11,363 bases of DNA from a virus (lineage: Duplodnaviria > Heunggongvirae > Uroviricota > Caudoviricetes). The position numbers and the translations under genes are program-made. The notes under the pieces are model-generated. The model was not told the origin of the DNA, did not search any database, and worked only from the letters and a program-made list of their open reading frames with translations. Location: IMG/VR virus record IMGVR_UViG_2563366799_000008; one strand, written 5' to 3'. Positions 1-11,363 of the stretch are shown here, one piece after another (within the stretch, counting starts at the first letter, position 1; the number at the start of each line of letters is the position of its first letter).

Positions 1-742
<742 letters not shown>

Positions 743-831
743 ATGAGACTTCATATTATAACTATAATTATGTAAAAAAGGCTGGTATTTTATACCTTGA
801 GGAAAATAGATAAGAGGAATGAGGTTTGGTT

Positions 832-2223
832 ATGATGAATTATACTGATGAGTCAACTTTTCTTGAAAAGTACAAACCGTTTAGGAAGTTTTGGACAATT
901 TTATCACCTCATTATGTATCTTTAATGCATGCACTTGCCAAAATGATAAGGGGAGGGAATCCAATTCAAGAACTACCTTCCAATGATGAGGATTTTCTTG
1001 CAGAGTATGAAACCTGTCTCAAAAATTGGAAAGACTCACAAAAAATCATATCTTTTGAGATTATTATTCGGCTGAGAGATATAAAAAGATTGGAAACTGA
1101 AAAAAAAGAGCACCATCGAAACAAGGATAAAGAAAATAAAGAAAAGTGTATTGATGAAATAAGTTTAAAAAAATTTGAAATTCTTATTCTTCGCCGTTGT
1201 ATTGACTCAATAATTTGGAGCATTCTTGATGAAGAACACTCTAGTTTGCGGCGTTTACCTATTAATGCAAGCAATGACAATCTATCAGAAGATAACATAA
1301 TTGATTCTATGGTCGCAGCCGATCTTATCAACCAGGACAAACACTCCGTAGCGATTGTCTCTGACATGAGCACATTTGTTCATGTGGGAGATTTAGTCAC
1401 CTTTAATCTACTGGATGGCTTCCAGCTCGTGGAAGTTAAAACAGGTGAAAAGAATAATGAGCTTTATGAAGCTGCTGAATTTTCTGTTATCTCAGAATGT
1501 CCGCACTTTGAAGAAAACTTCATTAACAATATGCCTGATAATGATGTTAAGCAATTTAATCGCATAAAAAGGCAAATCATTCGTGGCATGAATGTTCTGG
1601 AGGCGATTAATACTGGCGAGGGCTTTGACAACTTTCATCAGTCTAAAGTTAAAATCAATGAGATAGATCATCCGTCTGAATTTTATACCCACCGCTTAGT
1701 TAAAATGTGGGAGATTATTCGCGGAGGAAAAAATTGGGCAATTGATACTATTGATGAATGTTTGTTCTTAGGTATGTACCGTGATTCTGAAATGGGCTTT
1801 GTTGCCTTCAATGGATGGATGGATAGTCTCGGTATAAAAAGCCCTGTTGTGAATATAAATGATTCATTCTTTGACCCTTTGTCTCGACCATTTATGAGTT
1901 TGCATCTGCCAACTGAAATGCTCTCCGATCTCATGTCGGGACAAATAATCATCGTCATGTGTTTTGACAATGAACTTTTTTTTCACCGTGCTAACAAAAC
2001 GTACCCGGGTTTATATCTCCTTAGCGATGCAGCAAGAACAAAGCAGCCATTAGAAAATATTCTTCGTGTTGGTTCACAAGGGATAGCTTCTTACGTAGAT
2101 GGGAATACCAGCTTTTTAGGTAATGGTATTGAATCCCGTATCCTTTTCGATCAGCAACGACCCGACAACATTATTGAGTGGAGCTATGCTAGAAGCGATC
2201 TCAAAAAGCAACATGAAGCATAA
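832..2223 (+). CDS. hypothetical protein with a PD-(D/E)xK nuclease-like motif; candidate defence effector
   Basis: 463-aa ORF; track start TTG 826, but ATG 832 is preceded by GAGG at 821-824. About 33% GC. Residues HVGDLVTF...QLVEVK (nt ~1390-1440) fit the D...ExK catalytic signature. Lys/Glu-rich predicted helical stretch at residues ~80-125. No Walker A motif seen. Confidence 0.75.
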   Translation: MMNYTDESTFLEKYKPFRKFWTILSPHYVSLMHALAKMIRGGNPIQELPSNDEDFLAEYETCLKNWKDSQKIISFEIIIRLRDIKRLETEKKEHHRNKDKENKEKCIDEISLKKFEILILRRCIDSIIWSILDEEHSSLRRLPINASNDNLSEDNIIDSMVAADLINQDKHSVAIVSDMSTFVHVGDLVTFNLLDGFQLVEVKTGEKNNELYEAAEFSVISECPHFEENFINNMPDNDVKQFNRIKRQIIRGMNVLEAINTGEGFDNFHQSKVKINEIDHPSEFYTHRLVKMWEIIRGGKNWAIDTIDECLFLGMYRDSEMGFVAFNGWMDSLGIKSPVVNINDSFFDPLSRPFMSLHLPTEMLSDLMSGQIIIVMCFDNELFFHRANKTYPGLYLLSDAARTKQPLENILRVGSQGIASYVDGNTSFLGNGIESRILFDQQRPDNIIEWSYARSDLKKQHEA

Positions 2224-2485
2224 GCCGTTGGATGGGATTTCCCATGAATTGCCATGGATAATCTAGACACTTCGAGCCGTTGATAATGTTGATTTTCGTA
2301 TTCTGTCGGTGGAGTATCCCGAAAGGTATAGAGCAAAACCTGGAGAAAACACACAGCATCCCATTTTAATCTTTAACTCTGACCTTCCATAATGTCCGCT
2401 GTTGGCACAAAGCGGACAACCACGCTAGCTCTACCCTGTGCCACAAAATGTCAATTTGCATCTGAACTAATGCACTTTAATCTCG

Positions 2486-2908
2486 TCACTTCAATAAATA
2501 CCGAACATCCCCCTGATAAAACGACAATATGCGCTGCATAACTTCGCTTTTACGACACTCAGTACAAATCATATTATGACGCCTGTCGTAACGACGTATT
2601 TCTCCATCAGGTAATGACCAGATAAGGTCCGGATCAACCGCAGATGGTTTCTTCAGCTTTGCCCTTGAGAGCTTTTTACGGGCATTTTGCCAGTCCTTAC
2701 GCGCCTGTTCAGACGGGAATAACCCGTAACCAGAGTTGTATACATCGCCACTGGCAACCAGCTCTCTGGCCAGAACGTTCATCAGATATTTTGTTGCCCC
2801 AGTTTTAGTTTCCAGTTGTCTTAACGTCTCGCGCCCACTCTGGCGTACGAGTTCAACAACCTGCCCTTTAATTTTTTCCCGCTCTTCTTGTGTAAAAACT
2901 TTTGCCAC
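2486..2908 (-). CDS. hypothetical protein, 140 aa, last gene of the rightward early operon
   Basis: GTG start at 2908 with AGGAGGG immediately upstream on the - strand (short spacer). Lys/Arg-rich C-terminal half. Codirectional with and just downstream of the O-like gene. No family recognised. Confidence 0.55.
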   Translation of the reverse strand: MAKVFTQEEREKIKGQVVELVRQSGRETLRQLETKTGATKYLMNVLARELVASGDVYNSGYGLFPSEQARKDWQNARKKLSRAKLKKPSAVDPDLIWSLPDGEIRRYDRRHNMICTECRKSEVMQRILSFYQGDVRYLLK

Positions 2909-2948
2909 AAGCCCTCCTGAAAATTACCTCATGACCAGAAATTAACAC

Positions 2949-4019
2949 TTACCCCCTGAAGCCCGGCGGAATTTCGTTATCCGGTTCAGAAATATGATTC
3001 ACACAACGCTGGTTGTTCGTGCCGCTTACCGGGAGCAACCAGGGGTTCTCAAAATTCCGGTCCGGTCCAAAAAACGTCGTCGCTCGCTGAACAAATTCCG
3101 TTCCCGTTTTCCCGGTAGCCGCCAAGTATCTTGCGTAACGCCTCACGCCATCCAGCATGGCCTCTGGTGGCACCCCCTCGCGTAATCTGGCCTTCCAGGC
3201 ACTGAAAGCGGATTTCTTCGGGTTTGCTCCGGCACGCAACGGGTACTCCCGCCAGACCTGTTCGAACACATCCGGATAATCCACTCGTCCCACAGACTGC
3301 CCGGTGTTTTCCGGGACTACCCGATCGGCTTCCCGCTGAATGGCGGAATCGGCTTCGGGCTGCTGCAGTTGGTGTGATTGCTCCGGCCTTGCGGTCATCA
3401 CCTGCTGCACAGCGCCCGAATCGGCTTTCAGCGCATACGCTGAATCGGCTTCCGGTGTCGTGCCTGCTGGCTGACCAAGATTGACGGTCTGAACATCCCC
3501 TGCCTGGTTCGTGGCGTTTTTTACGCCATGGACCATAGTGTTTTGATCTTCTTGATCTGTATCTTTATCTGTATCTTTATCTTTCGTGACTCGTCGTGAC
3601 ATGTGCGTGACATTTCGTGACGCGCCGTGACAATCGCCATTTTGTTCCCGCTTTCTTTCCCTCTCTCGCTGCGCCCTCTTGCGCTCTGCAGGAGATTTTG
3701 CGGTTTGCGAAATATTGCCGTTGTCCTCTTTAAGCACCTGGCGTTTTTCCCATCCAGTGATTAAATCACCATCAAGTACCCGCCCCTGCATCGTCTGCAA
3801 AATTGAATCAATTACCTCTTCTGTCACGTCGAGCGCACTTGCCAAATCTTCTGTCGTGACATCAATGTGACCTCGCGTGACATTTCGTGACGCGCTCACC
3901 AAGAGGTGGATATACACTGCCATCACTGTTGCAATTGGCTGCCCTGACACCCTGGCAATTGTTCGCCACTTAGGGTCATTTGGCATGTCATGCCATAATC
4001 TGAGCCAGGCGTTAGCCAT
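2949..4019 (-). CDS. phage replication initiation protein (lambda O-like / YdaU-like replisome organiser)
   Basis: Track ORF 2949-4025; ATG at 4019 preferred (MANAWLRLWHDMPNDPKW...). C-terminal FEQVWREYPLRAGANPKKSAFSAWKARL resembles prophage replication proteins. Internal iteron clusters and an AT-rich tandem repeat lie within the coding sequence, as in lambda O. Confidence 0.8.
   Translation of the reverse strand: MANAWLRLWHDMPNDPKWRTIARVSGQPIATVMAVYIHLLVSASRNVTRGHIDVTTEDLASALDVTEEVIDSILQTMQGRVLDGDLITGWEKRQVLKEDNGNISQTAKSPAERKRAQRERERKREQNGDCHGASRNVTHMSRRVTKDKDTDKDTDQEDQNTMVHGVKNATNQAGDVQTVNLGQPAGTTPEADSAYALKADSGAVQQVMTARPEQSHQLQQPEADSAIQREADRVVPENTGQSVGRVDYPDVFEQVWREYPLRAGANPKKSAFSAWKARLREGVPPEAMLDGVRRYARYLAATGKTGTEFVQRATTFFGPDRNFENPWLLPVSGTNNQRCVNHISEPDNEIPPGFRG
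3545..3584. repeat. AT-rich tandem hexamer repeat (ATCTKT units) inside the O-like gene
   Basis: atctgt atcttt atctgt atcttt atcttt at 3555-3584, preceded by gatctt. Encodes the KDKDTDKDTD linker on the - strand. Lies directly beside iteron cluster 1. Confidence 0.7.
3585..3631. repeat. iteron cluster 1: five CGTGAC direct repeats at ~10-11 bp spacing (putative replication origin)
   Basis: CGTGAC at 3585, 3595, 3606, 3616 and 3626. The 21-bp block gcgtgacatttcgtgacgcgc (3605-3625) recurs exactly at 3875-3895. Confidence 0.6.
3855..3895. repeat. iteron cluster 2: four (C/T)GTGAC direct repeats at ~10-11 bp spacing
   Basis: CGTGAC at 3855, TGTGAC at 3866, CGTGAC at 3876 and 3886. An inverted copy (gtcacg) sits at 3824-3829. 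Contains the exact 21-bp copy of 3605-3625. Confidence 0.6.
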
Positions 4020-4090
4020 ACTCACCTCTTTTGATACCGAATCTTTTTACTCATAAATTGCCGGAAGTGATCCGGTATGAATATTGCGAG

Positions 4091-4516
4091 TCAATGCACA
4101 GCCACAATATTTCCTGCAGGGCCACCACGATTCATCTGGTTGAAACCAGCGATCGCCACTGCGACAAAATCATCAGCGTCTCTCACCAGTCGTTCCCGCG
4201 TCTCCACTAGTTCCCGAAAATAGGCTGAGCTATGACTGCGCATTCGGGCCACCAGCAGAGGTGGCATTGCTTTTTCGATAGCTGGTAACAACGCCTGAAT
4301 TTTTTTAACCGCATCAGGGGTGTCTTTCTCCACCCAGCGGAAAATTTTCTGAGTATTGCGAGCCAGGGCTTCCGGATGGCTGTCGTCATACAGTTCCGGG
4401 AACGTCATTCCCAGCTCGAAATACGCTTTGGTAATTTTCGCAGCCGGTACTTTTTCGCCGTCCGGATGCGCCCAGGCATTCATCGCCATGCGGATGTGTT
4501 CATGCTTGATTTTCAT
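4091..4516 (-). CDS. YdaT-like protein (Rac-type prophage, cII-position gene)
   Basis: 141 aa, begins MKIKHEHI as I recall for Rac YdaT. GGGAG SD about 6 nt upstream. Its ATG overlaps the stop of the Cro-like gene (ATGA), suggesting translational coupling. Confidence 0.75.
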   Translation of the reverse strand: MKIKHEHIRMAMNAWAHPDGEKVPAAKITKAYFELGMTFPELYDDSHPEALARNTQKIFRWVEKDTPDAVKKIQALLPAIEKAMPPLLVARMRSHSSAYFRELVETRERLVRDADDFVAVAIAGFNQMNRGGPAGNIVAVH

Positions 4517-4767
4517 GAATCAACTCCCATCAGCTTTTTCGTAGTAGTTTTATTCCTGCCAATAGTTAAAATTGCATCGGCAGAAAATAATCCGTTTGAT
4601 GCAAGAGCGATTTTTTCAGCGTAATTTGTTTCGCCGGTATATTCTGTGCGAGGCAATTTTCCGTTATCCATCCATTTATAGATTGCTCTTTGGCTGACAC
4701 CACAAACGTCGGCCACAACAGCAACGCGAACAGTTTTGATTACATCTTCAAGTGTTTTCTGGTTCAT
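4513..4767 (-). CDS. Cro-like HTH regulator (YdaS-like)
   Basis: Track ORF 4513-4839; ATG at 4767 preferred because GAGGG sits just upstream and the product starts MNQKTLEDVIKT. HTH-like segment VADVCGVSQRAIYKWMDNGKLP. Divergent from the repressor gene. Confidence 0.7.
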   Translation of the reverse strand: MNQKTLEDVIKTVRVAVVADVCGVSQRAIYKWMDNGKLPRTEYTGETNYAEKIALASNGLFSADAILTIGRNKTTTKKLMGVDS

Positions 4768-4846
4768 ATCACCCTCACAATGTGAACTTTGAGTACATGC
4801 TATAACAGAACTGACAGTACATTCAAGAGCGAATATCATTGAACTT
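4768..4846. promoter_or_regulatory. divergent immunity promoter/operator region (OR-like)
   Basis: 79-bp gap between divergent cro-like and repressor genes. Direct AGTACAT repeats at 4792-4798 and 4816-4822. + strand candidate: -35 CTGACA 4811-4816, 17-bp spacer, -10 TATCAT 4834-4839, placing the start at or next to the repressor ATG. - strand candidate: -35 TTGAAT, -10 TATAGC (weak). Confidence 0.45.
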
Positions 4847-5266
4847 ATGGTTCATGAAGATAAAGCGCGTAAAGAGTTCGCCAGTAGGCTTGCGCTAGCC
4901 TGTGAAAACGCTGGTTATGAACAACATGGAAGGCAGGCAGAAATTGCCCGTCGAATGAAATTAACACCAAAAGCGGTTAGCAAATGGTTTAATGGCGAAA
5001 CAATTCCTCGCCGGGAGAAATTAAGGGAATTAGCAACACTAATAGGAACAACACCAACCTATCTTTTGGGAGAGGATACAGAAGAAAGTGGACAGGTACG
5101 TTTCTATCAGGAGTTAAATCCAAGACAAAAAATCATCATTGACCTTCTGGACGAGCTCCCTGACAGTGAGACAGATGAACTTTTAAAAACTCTTGAAGAG
5201 AAAAAACAGAAGTACAATGCAATTTACGAAGAGTTAGCACGAAAGAAAAAACAAAAAGCCTCTTAA
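4847..5266 (+). CDS. prophage repressor, XRE-family HTH (DicA/RacR-like CI analogue)
   Basis: 139 aa. N-terminal HTH (AEIARRMKLTPKAVSKWFNGETIP) and acidic/basic helical C-terminus. Divergent from the cro-like gene. No SD upstream, consistent with a leaderless transcript. Confidence 0.85.
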   Translation: MVHEDKARKEFASRLALACENAGYEQHGRQAEIARRMKLTPKAVSKWFNGETIPRREKLRELATLIGTTPTYLLGEDTEESGQVRFYQELNPRQKIIIDLLDELPDSETDELLKTLEEKKQKYNAIYEELARKKKQKAS

Positions 5267-5276
5267 ACCAGCATAA

Positions 5277-5314
5277 ATCCGGTAGCGCCTTCCTCCGGGT
5301 TTGTGCTTCACTTT
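5277..5314 (+). terminator. weak candidate intrinsic terminator after the repressor gene
   Basis: Arms ATCCGG (5277-5282) and CCGGGT (5295-5300) with a 12-nt loop, followed by T-rich TTGTGCTTCACTTT. Stem is short with one G-U pair. Confidence 0.25.
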
Positions 5315-5325
5315 ATCCCATCTCA

Positions 5326-5390
5326 TTTTTTTACATACAAAATGTACTAATAGTACTTTACAACAATGAACGCAAAGTACGTTATATGCC
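5326..5390. promoter_or_regulatory. OL/pL-like operator-promoter region for the leftward early operon
   Basis: Near-palindrome ATGTACTAATAGTACTT (5342-5358) and AGTAC at 5376-5380 share the AGTACAT half-site found between cro and repressor. TTTACA hexamers at 5330 and 5357. No clean -10 identified. Confidence 0.3.
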
Positions 5391-5563
5391 TGCCACCCAC
5401 CCCGCCCCACAGAATGCAGGGCAATACTTCGAGTTACCAGGCAGTGGTCAGGGGTTAAGTAGCCAGCCCGAGGCGTAAGAACATGACGGCAGGGTTCAAC
5501 TTTAATAACTATGCAGCAGGTTTTTGTTCCGCTACCCCGGCGTTAAGGGGAAATGAGGTCAGC

Positions 5564-5719
5564 ATGGATACTATCGATCTTGGCAACAGCGAATCTCCGG
5601 TATGTGGCGTGTTCCCCAACCAGGACGGTACGTTCACCGCGATGACGTATACCAAAAGCAAAACGTTTAAAACCGAAAATGGTGCCCGTCGCTGGCTGGA
5701 AAGAAACTCAGGTGAGTGA
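5564..5719 (+). CDS. small early-left protein, YdfA/YdaF-like (DUF1391-type)
   Basis: 51-aa product MDTIDLGNSESPVCGVFPNQDGTF... from the internal ATG at 5564 with GAGG 5 nt upstream. Size and position after the repressor match ydfA in Qin. Stop sits 1 nt before the next ATG. Confidence 0.65.
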   Translation: MDTIDLGNSESPVCGVFPNQDGTFTAMTYTKSKTFKTENGARRWLERNSGE

Positions 5720-5720
5720 T

Positions 5721-6296
5721 ATGGATTTCGACACAATCATGGAAAAGGCTTACGAAGAATACTTCGAAGGTCTTGCCGAAGGCGAAGAAGCTCTCAGCTT
5801 CAGTGAGTTTAAACAGGCACTCAGAATAAGAATGTGCTCTCACAATGACGCGGAGCACAAATATGAGAAGCAAAATCAGACCGCAGAAAATTTTGTTCTG
5901 GAACCCGGAGAAACGCTTTTCAAAATTCCCGTTACGTGCCCCATTTGCGGTTTTACATCAGAAGAACTTGACGACTCCTGTAACAATCAGGAAACAACCA
6001 AGTATGTCGAAGATGATACCGAGTGCGCACGAAGAACGATTATATCCACGAGTCCAAACTCCAGGACCAATAAATCTCACTTTGAGAGGGTGATTAATCC
6101 ACTCCCCCAAACCAATAAAAAAGATGCCGGAGGACAAAAAACCCAATGGAACAACGGGATATCTGTCAAAAAAAGACGTTCCATTAAAGACAAACAACGC
6201 AGCGCCAACAACTGTAAGCGCTTTATACCAGTAATCAATTTTCATGTTCTTAAGCGGATTTATTGGTGGTTGCGACATTGCTTAATGAATCCTTAA
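5721..6296 (+). CDS. hypothetical acidic protein with CPICGF Cys motif (YdfB/YdfC-position); 3' extent uncertain
   Basis: ATG 5721 with AGGTGA SD. The first ~100 aa look protein-like (acidic, CxxC...C...C). The C-terminal half is a basic low-complexity sequence that fully overlaps a hydrophobic - strand ORF. Confidence 0.4.
   Translation: MDFDTIMEKAYEEYFEGLAEGEEALSFSEFKQALRIRMCSHNDAEHKYEKQNQTAENFVLEPGETLFKIPVTCPICGFTSEELDDSCNNQETTKYVEDDTECARRTIISTSPNSRTNKSHFERVINPLPQTNKKDAGGQKTQWNNGISVKKRRSIKDKQRSANNCKRFIPVINFHVLKRIYWWLRHCLMNP
5958..6278 (-). CDS. possible small membrane protein, antisense to the early-left operon (SieB-like position)
   Basis: 106 aa with three hydrophobic helix-like segments. 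ATG with AAGGA about 11 nt upstream and an in-frame stop directly 5' of it. Opposite orientation mirrors sieB in Rac. Could instead be a shadow of the + strand ORF. Confidence 0.35.
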   Translation of the reverse strand: MSQPPINPLKNMKIDYWYKALTVVGAALFVFNGTSFFDRYPVVPLGFLSSGIFFIGLGEWINHPLKVRFIGPGVWTRGYNRSSCALGIIFDILGCFLIVTGVVKFF

Positions 6297-6555
6297 AACT
6301 GTGGTGATTTTAAGGATACCACCTCGCCTGACGTGGTTAAAAGCAGGCACACAACACGAAAGCGCACGGCGAAGTTCGTCTCACTGTACGGTGTCGTTAA
6401 ATTTAATTCGACCGTGCGCTTCCGGTTGTGGCAACCCGCGAAATGGCGCGGCGGTAAGTATGGCGGGGTTATTCCTTCCCCGTTGAGGACACCGAGTTGT
6501 CAGGTTGACCATACGCTTAAGTGACAACCCCGCTGCAACGCCCTCTGTTATCAAT

Positions 6556-6613
6556 TTTCTGGTGACGTTTGGCGGTATCAGTTTTACTCCGTGACTGCTC
6601 TGCCGCCGTTTTT
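6556..6613 (+). ncRNA. dicF: DicF small regulatory RNA (ftsZ-targeting, Hfq-dependent) with 3' T-tract
   Basis: tttctggtgacgtttggcggtatcagttttactccgtgactgctctgccgcc followed by gttttt matches the ~53-nt DicF sequence as I remember it. Lies about 170 bp upstream of dicB, as in Qin. Confidence 0.8.
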
Positions 6614-6782
6614 AAAGTGAATTTTGTGATGCGGTGAATGCGGCTAAGCGCACGCGGAACAGTTAAAACCAAAAACAGTGTTATGGGTGGATTCTCTGTA
6701 TCCGGCGTTAATTGTTAACTGGTTAACGTCACCTGGAGGCACCAGGCACTGCATCACAAAATTCATTGTTGAGGACGCGATA

Positions 6783-6971
6783 ATGAAAACGTTATTACCA
6801 AACGTTAATACGTCTGAAGGTTGTTTTGAAATTGGTGTCACTATCAGTAACCCTGTATTTACTGAAGATGCCATTAACAAGAGAAAACACGAACGGGAGC
6901 TATTAAATAAAATATGCATTCTTTCAATGTTGGCCCGTTTACGTCCGATACAAAAAGGATGCTGGCAATGA
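6783..6971 (+). CDS. dicB: cell-division inhibitor DicB (acts through MinC)
   Basis: 62-aa product MKTLLPNVNTSEGCFEIGVTISNPVFTEDAINKRK...KGCWQ is near-identical to K-12 DicB as I recall it. GAGGA SD 7 nt upstream. Track ORF 6678-6971 is an upstream extension. Confidence 0.85.
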   Translation: MKTLLPNVNTSEGCFEIGVTISNPVFTEDAINKRKHERELLNKICILSMLARLRPIQKGCWQ

Positions 6972-7159
6972 ATACAGCATTTGCACTTGTTCTGACAGTT
7001 TTTCTTGTTTCCGGAGAGCCAGTTGATATTGCAGTCAGTGTTCACAGGACAATGCAGGAGTGTGTGACTGCAGCAACCGAACAGAAAATTCCCGGTAACT
7101 GTTACCCGGTCGATAAAGTTATTCACCAGGATAATATCGAAATCCCGGCAGGTCTTTAA
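6968..7159 (+). CDS. ydfD: YdfD-like small protein with N-terminal hydrophobic segment (lysis-associated in Qin)
   Basis: 63-aa product MNTAFALVLTVFLVSGEPVDIAV... from ATG 6968, with AGGA 9 nt upstream. Start overlaps the dicB stop (ATGA). Directly follows dicB, as ydfD does in Qin. Confidence 0.75.
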   Translation: MNTAFALVLTVFLVSGEPVDIAVSVHRTMQECVTAATEQKIPGNCYPVDKVIHQDNIEIPAGL

Positions 7160-7252
7160 AACAGTTCCGTAATAAATATCCGGTTTCATTCTTATATGCC
7201 AGCAATGGCAGGGATTTGTTCATCCTTAAATCTGTCATGAGGTTAAAACAAA

Positions 7253-9724
7253 ATGAGTAAAGTCTTTATTTGCGCCGCTATTCCTGACGAACTGGCAACA
7301 AGGGAAGAAGGCGCTGTGGCTGTAGCCACAGCCATTGAAGCTGGCGACGAACGCCGTGCTCGAGCAAAATTTCACTGGCAGTTCCTGGAACATTATCCGG
7401 CTGCTCAGGACTGCGCTTATAAATTTATTGTCTGCGAGGATAAACCTGGCATACCCCGCCCTGCCCTCGATTCATGGGATGCTGAATATATGCAGGAAAA
7501 CCGCTGGGATGAGGAGTCTGCTTCTTTTGTCCCGGTTGAGACTGAATCCGATCCGATGAACGTCACTTTTGACAAGCTGGCCCCTGAAGTACAGAACGCT
7601 GTCATGGTTAAGTTCGACACATGTGAAAACATCACCGTTGATATGGTTATTAGCGCACAGGAATTGTTGCAGGAAGACATGGCAACATTCGACGGACATA
7701 TCGTTGAAGCGTTGATGAAAATGCCAGAAGTTAACGCCATGTATCCGGAGCTTAAGTTGCACGCCATTGGGTGGGTTAAGCATAAATGTATTCCTGGTGC
7801 TAAATGGCCCGAAATTCAGGCAGAGATGCGCATCTGGAAAAAACGTCGCGAAGGTGAACGCAAGGAAACCGGAAAATACACGTCTGTTGTTGATCTCGCC
7901 CGCGCCAGAGCCAATCAACAGTACACTGAAAATTCAACAGGAAAAATCAGCCCGGTCATTGCTGCCATTCATCGCGAATACAAGCAGACATGGAAAACAC
8001 TGGATGACGAACTGGCCTACGCTCTCTGGCCTGGTGATGTAGATGCCGGAAACATTGACGGCAGCATCCATCGCTGGGCAAAAAATGAAGTTATCGACAA
8101 CGACCGCGAAGACTGGAAGCGTATCTCGGCATCAATGCGCAAACAGCCTGATGCCCTTCGCTACGACCGCCAGACTATTTTTGGCCTTGTCCGTGAACGT
8201 CCGATCGACATTCACAAAGACCCTGTGGCACTGAACAAATACATTACTGAATACCTGACTACAAAGGGCGTGTTTGAAGATGAAGGAACAAATCAGAGCG
8301 CAACTGATACTCTCTCGTCGCCAGTACCAGAAACTGATGCAGTGGAAACGGCAATTCCAGACAACGAAAAAACCGAATGCAAAGTGGAAGTCGAACCATC
8401 TGTAGAACGTGAGGGGCCGTTCTACTTCCTCTTCACCGACAAGGATGGCGAAAAATACGGTCGCGCAAACAAACTTTCTGGTCTGGATAAGGCGCTGTCT
8501 GCTGGGGCTACTGAAATCACGAAAGAAGAATATTTCGCCCGCAAAAACGGTACATACTCAGGTTCACAACAAAATACTGGTGCATCTGACACGACCGCAC
8601 AACCAGGGTCAGTAAAAGTTACCGCTGACGAAGTAAACAAAATTATGCAGGCAGCCAATATCAGCCAGCCTGACGCCGATGAACTGCTTGCAGTATCACG
8701 TGGTGAATTTGTTGAAGGGATTAGCGACCCGAATGATCCGAAATGGGTTAAGGGGATCCAGACCCGCGATTCTGTGAACCAGAACCAGCAAGAAACGGAA
8801 CAGAACGACCAGAAAGCGGAACAAAACAGCCCAAATACGCAACAAAACGAGCCAGAAACAAAACAACCTGAACCAGTAGTGCAACAGGAACCGGAAAAGA
8901 TCTGCACCGCCTGCGGTCATAGCGGTGGCGGCAACTGCCCTGATTGTGGTGCGGTGATGGGTGACGCAACATACCAGGAAATATTCGATGGAGAGAATCA
9001 GCCTGAAGTTCAGGAAAATGATCCGGAGGAAATGGAAGGCACTGCGCATCAGCACAAGGAGAACACTGGCGGCAATCAGCATCACAATAGCGATAATGAA
9101 ACTGGCGAGACGGCAGATCACTCAATTAAGGTGAACGGTCATCACGAAATCACATCCACCAGCAGGACGTGTGACCATCTAATGATCGACCTTGAAACCA
9201 TGGGAAAAAATCCTGATGCCCCGATCATCTCAATAGGTGCAATATTTTTCGATCCGCAAACCGGAGATATGGGACCGGAATTTAGTAAGACTATCGATCT
9301 GGAAACTGCTGGCGGAGTCATTGATCGGGACACCATTAAATGGTGGCTTAAGCAATCACGCGAAGCGCAATCTGCCATTATGACCGATGAAATCCCGTTA
9401 GATGATGCACTGTTACAATTGCGGGAATTTATCGACGAAAACTCCGGTGAATTTTTTGTTCATGTCTGGGGAAATGGAGCCAACTTCGACAACACGATTT
9501 TGCGCCGTTCATACGAACGGCAGGGAATCCCCTGCCCGTGGCGTTACTACAACGATCGCGATGTACGCACAATCGTTGAGCTGGGGAAAGCCATAGACTT
9601 CGATGCCAGAACGGCTATTCCATTCGAAGGTGAGCGCCATAATGCACTTGATGACGCCCGTTACCAGGCAAAATACGTTTCAGCTATCTGGCAAAAACTG
9701 ATCCCGAGTCAGGCTGATTCTTAA
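7253..9724 (+). CDS. exodeoxyribonuclease VIII-like early protein (YdfE-like) with C-terminal DnaQ-like DEDDh 3'-5' exonuclease domain
   Basis: 823-aa ORF with GAGG SD. C-terminus carries Exo I (IDLETMG, D at nt 9188), Exo II (WGNGANFDNTIL) and Exo III (HNALDDARY) motifs. Middle has a Q/N/E-rich low-complexity linker (~8760-8900) and a CTACGHSGGGNCPDCG zinc-ribbon-like motif (~8910-8960). Confidence 0.9.
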   Translation: MSKVFICAAIPDELATREEGAVAVATAIEAGDERRARAKFHWQFLEHYPAAQDCAYKFIVCEDKPGIPRPALDSWDAEYMQENRWDEESASFVPVETESDPMNVTFDKLAPEVQNAVMVKFDTCENITVDMVISAQELLQEDMATFDGHIVEALMKMPEVNAMYPELKLHAIGWVKHKCIPGAKWPEIQAEMRIWKKRREGERKETGKYTSVVDLARARANQQYTENSTGKISPVIAAIHREYKQTWKTLDDELAYALWPGDVDAGNIDGSIHRWAKNEVIDNDREDWKRISASMRKQPDALRYDRQTIFGLVRERPIDIHKDPVALNKYITEYLTTKGVFEDEGTNQSATDTLSSPVPETDAVETAIPDNEKTECKVEVEPSVEREGPFYFLFTDKDGEKYGRANKLSGLDKALSAGATEITKEEYFARKNGTYSGSQQNTGASDTTAQPGSVKVTADEVNKIMQAANISQPDADELLAVSRGEFVEGISDPNDPKWVKGIQTRDSVNQNQQETEQNDQKAEQNSPNTQQNEPETKQPEPVVQQEPEKICTACGHSGGGNCPDCGAVMGDATYQEIFDGENQPEVQENDPEEMEGTAHQHKENTGGNQHHNSDNETGETADHSIKVNGHHEITSTSRTCDHLMIDLETMGKNPDAPIISIGAIFFDPQTGDMGPEFSKTIDLETAGGVIDRDTIKWWLKQSREAQSAIMTDEIPLDDALLQLREFIDENSGEFFVHVWGNGANFDNTILRRSYERQGIPCPWRYYNDRDVRTIVELGKAIDFDARTAIPFEGERHNALDDARYQAKYVSAIWQKLIPSQADS

Positions 9725-9735
9725 TGTTCAACTGT

Positions 9736-9767
9736 CGCCGGTTGTGACTGGTATTCTGCAACCGGCG
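9736..9767 (+). other. RNA hairpin between exonuclease and excisionase genes (9-bp GC-rich stem, 14-nt loop), no U-tract
   Basis: cgccggttg (9736-9744) pairs with caaccggcg (9759-9767). Followed by ctcgtctgatg, so it is not a canonical intrinsic terminator. Confidence 0.3.
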
Positions 9768-9796
9768 CTCGTCTGATGTAAGAGATAAAGAAATCG

Positions 9797-10048
9797 ATGA
9801 GCGAAGTAATCATGATTGTCTCTCCCGGCAAATGGGTATCCGAAGAGCAGTTAATTGCGCTGAAAGGAATAAAAAAAGGTACGTTAAAAAAGGCCCGGGA
9901 AAAATCGTTTATGGAAGGAAGGGAATATAAGCATGTCGCTCATGACGGTATGCCATGGGATAACAGTCCATGCTTTTACAACCTGGAAGAAATTGATCGC
10001 TGGATTGAGCGCCAGGCATCAGCAAGACCAAGACGTCATCTTACTTGA
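9797..10048 (+). CDS. xis: excisionase-like protein (Xis)
   Basis: 83-aa basic protein immediately upstream of and codirectional with the integrase, with a 34-bp gap. Weak SD. Position and size are typical of lambdoid xis. Confidence 0.65.
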   Translation: MSEVIMIVSPGKWVSEEQLIALKGIKKGTLKKAREKSFMEGREYKHVAHDGMPWDNSPCFYNLEEIDRWIERQASARPRRHLT

Positions 10049-10082
10049 CTAAAAGCCACACTAACTAATGAGAGAAGTTGAA

Positions 10083-11363
10083 ATGAAATATCCGACAGGC
10101 GTGGAAAACCATGGAGGGAAATTACGTATCTGGTTTGTTTATAAAGGCGTAAGAGTCAGGGAAAACCTGGGGGTTCCTGACACAGCAAAAAACAGGCGCG
10201 TTGCAGGTGAGTTACGCGCCTCTGTTTGTTACGCAATAAAAACTGGTGTTTTCGACTATGCAAAACAGTTTCCCTCCTCACGCAATCTGGAAAAATTTGG
10301 TGAGGCCCGACAAGATTTAACCATAAAAGAACTGGCTGAAAAATTTCTGGCACTGAAAGAAACTGAAGTCGCAAAAACATCACTCAACACATACCGTGCC
10401 GTCATCAAAAATATCCTGAGCATAATCGGTGAAAAAAATCTTGCCTCATCGATTAATAAAGAAAAATTACTGGAGGTTCGTAAAGAGCTACTGACTGGAT
10501 ACCAGATCCCCAAAAGTAACTATATTGTTACACAACCAGGGAGATCGGCTGTAACTGTAAATAATTACATGACAAATCTTAACGCCGTGTTCCAGTTTGG
10601 TGTTGATAACGGTTACCTGGCAGATAACCCGTTTAAGGGGATCTCGCCATTAAAGGAATCAAGAACCATTCCGGATCCTCTTTCGCGGGAGGAATTTATC
10701 CGTCTTATCGATGCGTGCAGAAATCAGCAAGCAAAAAATTTATGGTGTGTTTCTGTTTATACTGGCGTTCGCCCTGGTGAGCTGTGTGCACTTGGATGGG
10801 AGGACATAGATCTGAAAAATGGAACAATGATGATCAGGAGAAATTTAGCAAAAGACCGTTTCACGGTACCAAAAACACAGGCGGGAACCAATCGGGTCAT
10901 TCATCTTATTAAGCCAGCAATCGACGCTCTCCGGAGTCAGATGACATTAACGAGACTGAGCAAAGAGCATATCATTGATGTTCACCTCAGAGAGTATGGC
11001 AGAACAGAAAAACAAAAATGCACCTTTGTTTTTCAACCTGAAGTGTCAGCGAGAGTAAAAAATTATGGTGACCATTTTACCGTTGACTCAATAAGGCAGA
11101 TGTGGGACGCAGCGATAAAACGTGCCGGACTCCGCCATCGAAAATCATATCAGTCGAGACATACTTATGCCTGCTGGTCGCTGACAGCTGGTGCTAACCC
11201 GGCATTTATAGCAAACCAGATGGGCCATGCAGATGCGCAAATGGTATTTAAGGTATACGGAAAATGGATGTCTGAAAACAATAATGCACAGGTAGCTTTG
11301 TTAAATACACAGTTAAGCGAGTTTGCCCCAACCATGCCCCATAACGAAGCAATGAAAAATTAA
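10083..11363 (+). CDS. int: phage tyrosine integrase (IntR/lambdoid family)
   Basis: Track ORF starts 10068; ATG 10083 (MKYPTGVENHGGKLRIWF) aligns with the N-terminus of IntR-type integrases. Catalytic-region motifs GVRPGELCALGWEDID and SRHTYACW...GHADAQMVFKVYGKW. Stop is at the window end. Confidence 0.9.
   Translation: MKYPTGVENHGGKLRIWFVYKGVRVRENLGVPDTAKNRRVAGELRASVCYAIKTGVFDYAKQFPSSRNLEKFGEARQDLTIKELAEKFLALKETEVAKTSLNTYRAVIKNILSIIGEKNLASSINKEKLLEVRKELLTGYQIPKSNYIVTQPGRSAVTVNNYMTNLNAVFQFGVDNGYLADNPFKGISPLKESRTIPDPLSREEFIRLIDACRNQQAKNLWCVSVYTGVRPGELCALGWEDIDLKNGTMMIRRNLAKDRFTVPKTQAGTNRVIHLIKPAIDALRSQMTLTRLSKEHIIDVHLREYGRTEKQKCTFVFQPEVSARVKNYGDHFTVDSIRQMWDAAIKRAGLRHRKSYQSRHTYACWSLTAGANPAFIANQMGHADAQMVFKVYGKWMSENNNAQVALLNTQLSEFAPTMPHNEAMKN

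Follow-up and report, generated by a model that had tools for sequence, protein, structure and literature searches.

The open reading frame at positions 832 to 2,223 of the DNA analysed here (11,363 nucleotides in all, hereafter the window) encodes DS-37, also known by the working identifier SC24, whose gene has published anti-phage activity. In our best explanation, to which we assign a probability of about 0.65, it is a defence gene carried by prophages and plasmids, and its product acts as a self-contained sensor-effector built around a divergent PD-(D/E)xK DNA endonuclease. That the protein serves in defence is, in our view, nearly certain. DS-37 and its link to AbiH are already published, so that our find in a genome scan is a rediscovery; what we add is modest, namely the set of invariant residues, the boundaries of a cassette, the swapping of Abi-type partners in distant homologues and a copy of the locus that is disrupted by IS5.

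The identity can be read directly from the published material. In the DefensePredictor study (DeWeirdt et al., Science 2026; PMC13092281), accession WP_000982358.1 bears the working id SC24 and was named DS-37. The sequence printed for SC24/DS-37 in Table S8 matches the protein of the window, with the same accession and the same length. SC24 was taken from an E. coli assembly as a one-gene transcription unit, it is flagged TRUE both for defensive and for replicated, and its entry gives no homology by HHblits to any defence protein known before (PMC13092281). The units in this screen were carried on a low-copy plasmid with their native upstream region in the host MG1655, and DS-37 reached a -log(EOP) of 4.32 on Bas69 and of 1.94 on SECphi27 (PMC13092281). 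The initial annotation, made from the sequence alone, had guessed at a defence effector, and this guess was right, since WP_000982358.1 is DS-37 and the identical protein lowers the plating of Bas69 and SECphi27. In a second publication (Microlife 2026; PMC13639185), DS-37 is handled as one of the subtypes of DefenseFinder. In 240 of its 341 instances (71%) it is colocalised with AbiH, and the authors propose that the two act in synergy or that DS-37 is an accessory in this pairing.

The same screen also gives DS-37 its nuclease label. The basis named by the authors is an HHpred match to NERD over residues 154-204, with a probability of 0.47 (PMC13092281). [quoted passage not shown] Of the 31 further systems validated in the screen, 13 contain a PD-(D/E)xK domain (PMC13092281). 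NERD (PF08378) and the other single-protein PD-(D/E)xK systems found there share a theme with DS-37, a minimal nuclease core (putative in DS-37) combined with unrelated extra domains. DS-37 is absent from the main-text discussion of PMC13092281, and in the literature that we searched we were not able to find a DS-37 mutant, a nuclease assay or a mechanism.

As a whole, the window is a lambdoid E. coli prophage of the Qin/Kim type, and its positions 201-11363 are 99.9% identical to the locus in strain FDAARGOS_1058. It contains the following features:

1-200, minus strand: terminal part of an IS5 copy that interrupts the AbiH gene, 100% identical to the IS5-like element IS5 family transposase of more than 2,400 E. 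coli genomes
201-742, plus strand: AbiH remnant, about residues 123-302 of 302 (the C-terminal 60%; Pfam AbiH E = 6e-37, PADLOC AbiH E = 2e-18)
743-831, plus strand: intergenic region with a Shine-Dalgarno sequence and a weak promoter-like site (807-836)
832-2223, plus strand: DS-37 coding sequence, 463 amino acids and stop (WP_000982358.1)
2224-2245, plus strand: right edge of the AbiH + DS-37 cassette; homology to pMS-37c spans window positions 201-2245 (93%) and then stops
2486-4516: a YdaT-family gene, a replication gene and a DUF977 gene
near 4513-5266: repressor-type genes
6557-6608, plus strand: DicF small RNA (Rfam RF00039, 72.5 bits)
7253-9724: exonuclease
9797: excisionase
10068 to the end of the window: integrase

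The presence of DicF is consistent with a prophage of the Qin/Kim type. With 31-38% GC, the region around DS-37 is the most AT-rich part of the window (other parts of the prophage have 45-59%), and it had correctly been described as AT-rich cargo. In K-12, the slot of the Qin prophage between hokD and the replication genes (compare window positions 743-2245) is presumably occupied by relBE; if so, the site of DS-37 would be a variable cargo site of this prophage.

The proposed reading frame of 463 amino acids could be confirmed. It starts with the ATG at 832, the Shine-Dalgarno sequence GAGG lies at 821-824, seven bases 5' of it, and window positions 201-2500 are 100% identical to loci in which RefSeq annotates WP_000982358.1 as a coding sequence, labelled "hypothetical protein". 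A promoter scan of the intergenic region between AbiH and DS-37 scored no better than shuffled sequence, and scans of window positions 1-2600 for promoters, terminators and repeats gave nothing exceeding chance. Region 743-831 presumably drives the expression of DS-37, given that the published construct was active with the native upstream region alone.

Next, we asked how the protein is conserved. There are 48 close homologues in Enterobacterales and Aeromonas, all of them without a name, and a homologue search with a profile built from 84 sequences returned essentially the same close set. An exhaustive profile search gave 678 clusters (at 50% identity), most of them about 450 residues long and matched over their full length, while a scan of genome representatives gave three loci; among deposited phage genomes there was no match. 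The protein had been said to belong to no recognisable family, which holds for Pfam, NCBIfam, PHROG and PADLOC 2.0, because none of these libraries has a family that matches it, and does not hold for the literature, where it is named DS-37.

In the alignment of the 84 homologues, with identities down to 19%, the only invariant columns are D178, D187, E201, K203, G205, R244, Q248 and P444. Three of them belong to the PD-(D/E)xK signature which had been read from the peptides HVGDLVTF (residues 184-191) and QLVEVK (residues 198-203). The motif is thus borne out, and judged from this alignment it is not a product of chance, since D187, E201 and K203 are among so few invariant columns. Note that these residues had been picked out correctly as D189, E203 and K205 with a numbering that started at an upstream TTG (position 826), and that they become D187, E201 and K203 when counted from the ATG at 832. 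As a side remark, the two trailing columns of Table S8 (PMC13092281) print '210-212' and '199' in the row of SC24/DS-37, which correspond to E-L-Y and L and not to the motif. The row of RED7 prints '201-203' and '187', an exact fit to the motif of DS-37; in the table as stored, a shift of rows may have occurred in this pair of columns.

The AlphaFold2 model of DS-37 (pLDDT 81.9, pTM 0.81) and the alignment together divide the protein as follows:

985-1227, plus strand: long helical hairpin rich in lysine and glutamate, residues 52-132 (AlphaFold2 model)
1288-1614, plus strand: putative PD-(D/E)xK core, residues 153-261; a helix is followed by three strands and then by helices (AlphaFold2 model)
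1363-1446, plus strand: invariant motif D178...D187...E201-x-K203-x-G205, the predicted metal-binding and catalytic site (84-sequence alignment)
1561-1575, plus strand: R244 and Q248, both invariant, on the helix that follows the strands of the core (invariant columns; model helix 236-261)
1615-2220, plus strand: alpha/beta region at the C-terminus (residues 262-463), function unassigned; conservation in the family extends over its full length

The N-terminal region had been described as helical and rich in Lys and Glu, and it is: these two residues make up 24% of the N-terminal third as against 11% elsewhere, and the model folds residues 52-132 into the hairpin, which may be an oligomerisation or regulatory element. 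The elements of the core are the helix 153-166, the strands 172-176, 188-192 and 196-200, and the helices 206-221 and 236-261. In the restriction-endonuclease fold, whose core runs alpha-beta-beta-beta-alpha(-beta), the aspartate usually opens one strand (strand 2) and the (D/E)xK lies on the next (strand 3), typically at its end. In the model of DS-37, a helix and a first strand are followed by a beta-hairpin in which one strand starts at D187 and the next ends at E201-x-K203. R244 and Q248 may play a helper role at the active site. The C-terminal region has no match in Pfam or the PDB; it is not a duplicate of the core (hhalign probability 0.5%), and comparing the core with the C-terminal and N-terminal regions by hhalign we found no internal duplication.

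Structure prediction followed by Foldseek had been recommended as a check: the model puts the motif on a beta-hairpin, and the search of the PDB returned nothing with E < 0.08. Profile searches of PDB sequences with the DS-37 family gave no match either. We saw no hhalign signal between the core and single sequences of the Mrr, PDDEXK_4, EC042_2821 and DpnII-like proteins from neighbouring genes, as is to be expected because these templates were single sequences. NERD, for which the authors' HHpred probability was only 0.47, matched none of the 84 members in hmmscan against Pfam. The only Pfam family matching more than two members is SduA_C, with 4 of the 84 members and a best E of 0.013. In all four the match falls on the D...ExK segment, at about profile positions 34-62; these positions were located with queries in which the motif regions of several members were concatenated, and from this run only the positions can be used because concatenation inflates E-values. 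We therefore rate it as likely, not as demonstrated, that the central domain is a nuclease, since fold and profile searches gave no confirmation and the recurring SduA_C signal is faint. On balance we lean towards a defence that depends on nuclease activity.

Potentially, the motif could be non-catalytic, and DS-37 could defend the cell by other means, for instance if it bound DNA or a protein of the phage and thereby blocked replication or packaging. The lack of any significant fold or profile match to a nuclease would fit, as would the fact that about 330 of the 463 residues are unassigned. We nevertheless consider this very unlikely, as strictly invariant D, D and E-x-K on a beta-hairpin in 84 sequences are hard to explain without chemistry.

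The SduA_C signal raises the question of whether DS-37 is a very distant and rearranged relative of Shedu (SduA; Pfam SduA_C/DUF4263), that is, an oligomeric nuclease recognising free or unusual ends of phage DNA. Shedu, whose mechanism involves the sensing of DNA ends, is like DS-37 a one-gene defence system; its core is of the PD-(D/E)xK type, as is predicted for DS-37, and the faint likeness of the profiles lies just at the D...ExK segment, where SduA_C is the sole recurrent Pfam signal; two single members also match SduA in PADLOC (E = 0.007 and 0.04). On the other hand, all SduA_C scores stay below the Pfam cutoff of 27 bits, the top two (23-25 bits) are inflated by concatenation, and the protein of the window itself has neither an SduA_C nor a PADLOC match. 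The PADLOC Shedu models do not detect the family, given that the SduA models match only 2 of the 84 members, and weakly. Moreover, the nuclease domain of SduA is C-terminal according to Pfam and follows a variable N-terminal domain, whereas the core of DS-37 is central: its motif occupies residues 178-203 of 463, with the helical hairpin before it and about 260 conserved residues after it (the C-terminal domain accounting for roughly 200). A kinship with Shedu thus seems improbable to us.

We also looked for a confident match to a housekeeping enzyme family, which the initial annotation had named as evidence against its proposal, and found none. We reject a housekeeping enzyme, as DS-37 is patchy (the AbiH + DS-37 stretch is present in 65 of 5,426 complete E. 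coli genomes), lies on mobile elements and matches no housekeeping family.

The immediate neighbour of DS-37 is AbiH, a Sir2-like abortive-infection protein according to a review (PMC13064643). In the window, the reading frame 131-742 covers only positions 119-258 of the 260 of the Pfam AbiH profile, and its N-terminal part has been replaced by IS5; intact loci have the gene in full length (WP_001297700.1), and undisrupted AbiH copies elsewhere cover positions 1-258 with E = 2e-69. This junction between IS5 and AbiH was found in none of the 5,426 complete E. coli genomes in RefSeq, while the intact pair of AbiH and DS-37 is present in 65 of them. Here AbiH is dead, because IS5 sits in its gene, and DS-37 is intact. 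The locus therefore differs from the published DS-37, a one-gene unit filed as PD-(D/E)xK (PMC13092281), not in the protein, which is identical, but in the neighbouring AbiH cut by IS5.

AbiH and DS-37 form a discrete cassette of 2,415 bp that reaches from near the start codon of AbiH to 22 bp past the stop codon of DS-37. This cassette is common to the Qin-like prophage of E. coli and to the SSU5-like IncFIB phage-plasmid pMS-37c of Enterobacter, at 93% identity, and outside of it we found no homology between the two elements. As one unit, it travels among mobile elements that are not related to each other. An example of the intact cassette is NZ_CP065970.1, 3359894-3362303 (L001, 8636-11045).

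AbiH is not the only partner of this kind. The gene pair in the intact copies of our locus is the AbiH-DS-37 'synton' of PMC13639185, which reports the pairing with AbiH only, whereas we also see other partners, solo genes and the edges of the cassette. On plasmids of Pantoea, Erwinia and others, more distant DS-37 homologues are preceded, at a distance of 16-43 nt, by Abi_2 (a HEPN family of the AbiD/F type), and in Dickeya the upstream gene encodes a DUF3644/EC042_2821 protein. The latter combines a HEPN domain with an endonuclease-like domain (PMC3710099). Abi_2 and DUF3644 are separated from DS-37 by 16-43 nt, AbiH by 88-93 nt. Identities of partner and DS-37 run in parallel for AbiH (91/96, 91/92, 89/90 and 87/86%) and co-diverge for Abi_2 (91/86, 78/72, 56/45 and 56/44%). 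When homologues were grouped at 90% identity, an Abi-type partner stood upstream in 10 of the 25 clusters; 14 had no Abi-type gene immediately upstream, and one is a locus with a truncated gene. Genes without a partner follow gpU or gpD in P2-like prophages or come directly after an integrase; others lie on an IncP-like plasmid, in defence islands or next to Gabija-like genes. In still more distant members, the upstream gene encodes an alpha/beta hydrolase (DUF900), an SRAP protein or a DpnII-like protein.

These neighbourhoods bring in the main rival reading, a two-part system of DS-37 and its upstream neighbour. DS-37 would then be the sensor, adaptor or amplifier of the Abi-type effector encoded just before it (AbiH in E. 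coli, Abi_2 or DUF3644 in more distant clades), and its acidic/lysine site would recognise nucleic acid and not destroy it. The co-divergence of AbiH and Abi_2 with DS-37, the short gaps and the mobility of the cassette as one unit are what one would expect from such a pair. The activity of DS-37 as a single gene is compatible with it as well, because the two halves could act alone and do better together. Still, DS-37 protects without AbiH, more than half of the clusters (14 of 25) have no such partner, one shared interface would have to serve three unrelated partner families, and in the window AbiH was destroyed while DS-37 was kept intact. Taking this together, we consider a mere partner role unlikely. 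A related suggestion, which we put forward tentatively and hold to be rather doubtful, is that the DS-37 family is a module swapping among unrelated effectors (AbiH, Abi_2, DUF3644/EC042_2821), with which it is co-inherited and works together; DS-37 would sense or process phage DNA and license the partner effector. If this were true, the 'single-gene' AbiH, AbiD/F-type and DS-37 systems would often be halves of two-gene systems.

We prefer to see DS-37 as a self-contained sensor-effector. Its central domain would be a divergent, Mg-dependent DNA endonuclease of the PD-(D/E)xK type, in which D178, D187 and E201 would bind the metal and K203 would serve as catalytic lysine; R244 and Q248 would sit on the next helix. 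Before infection the enzyme might be kept inactive, probably in an oligomer, by the helical hairpin at its N-terminus together with the alpha/beta domain at its C-terminus; our confidence in these details of autoinhibition is low. Infection would supply a trigger, upon which DS-37 would cleave the DNA of the phage, either alone or along with that of the host. AbiH, possibly NAD-depleting as a Sir2-like protein, would form a second layer beside DS-37. An antitoxin role of AbiH can be ruled out, since DS-37 is intact here with AbiH disrupted, has been cloned alone and has homologues that occur alone; for the same reasons AbiH is not strictly required.

Precise targets for mutagenesis are now available (D178, D187, E201, K203, R244 and Q248), and a functional link between DS-37 and the neighbouring Abi genes has become directly testable. 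Should this link prove real, a number of abortive-infection systems that are classically taken as one-gene systems would have to be read anew as two-gene modules.

Finally, a few members of the family deserve a remark. A subfamily of about 680 residues (P0159, P0164, P0165 and P0183; loci L071 5001-7037 and L072 5001-7043) has some 230 additional residues at its N-terminus, which form a domain that opens with a conserved 'GILAYGSLIDDPG' motif that by eye resembles gamma-glutamyl-cyclotransferase/ChaC-type motifs; the extension has no match in Pfam or the PDB. One copy of this subfamily overlaps an SRAP gene and adjoins imuB/dnaE2, and another adjoins dnd genes. Fragments 86-90% identical to the E. 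coli DS-37 were seen on a contig of 583 bp from Streptomyces plumbiresistens (L003) and on one of 245 bp from Vogesella urethralis (L004); these are probably assembly contamination and not true occurrences. On a Bacillus cereus plasmid (NZ_CP129006.1, 520956-521845), a match with 26% identity to residues 86-379 is annotated as three hypothetical proteins, and it may be a fragmented distant homologue of DS-37 in the Firmicutes.
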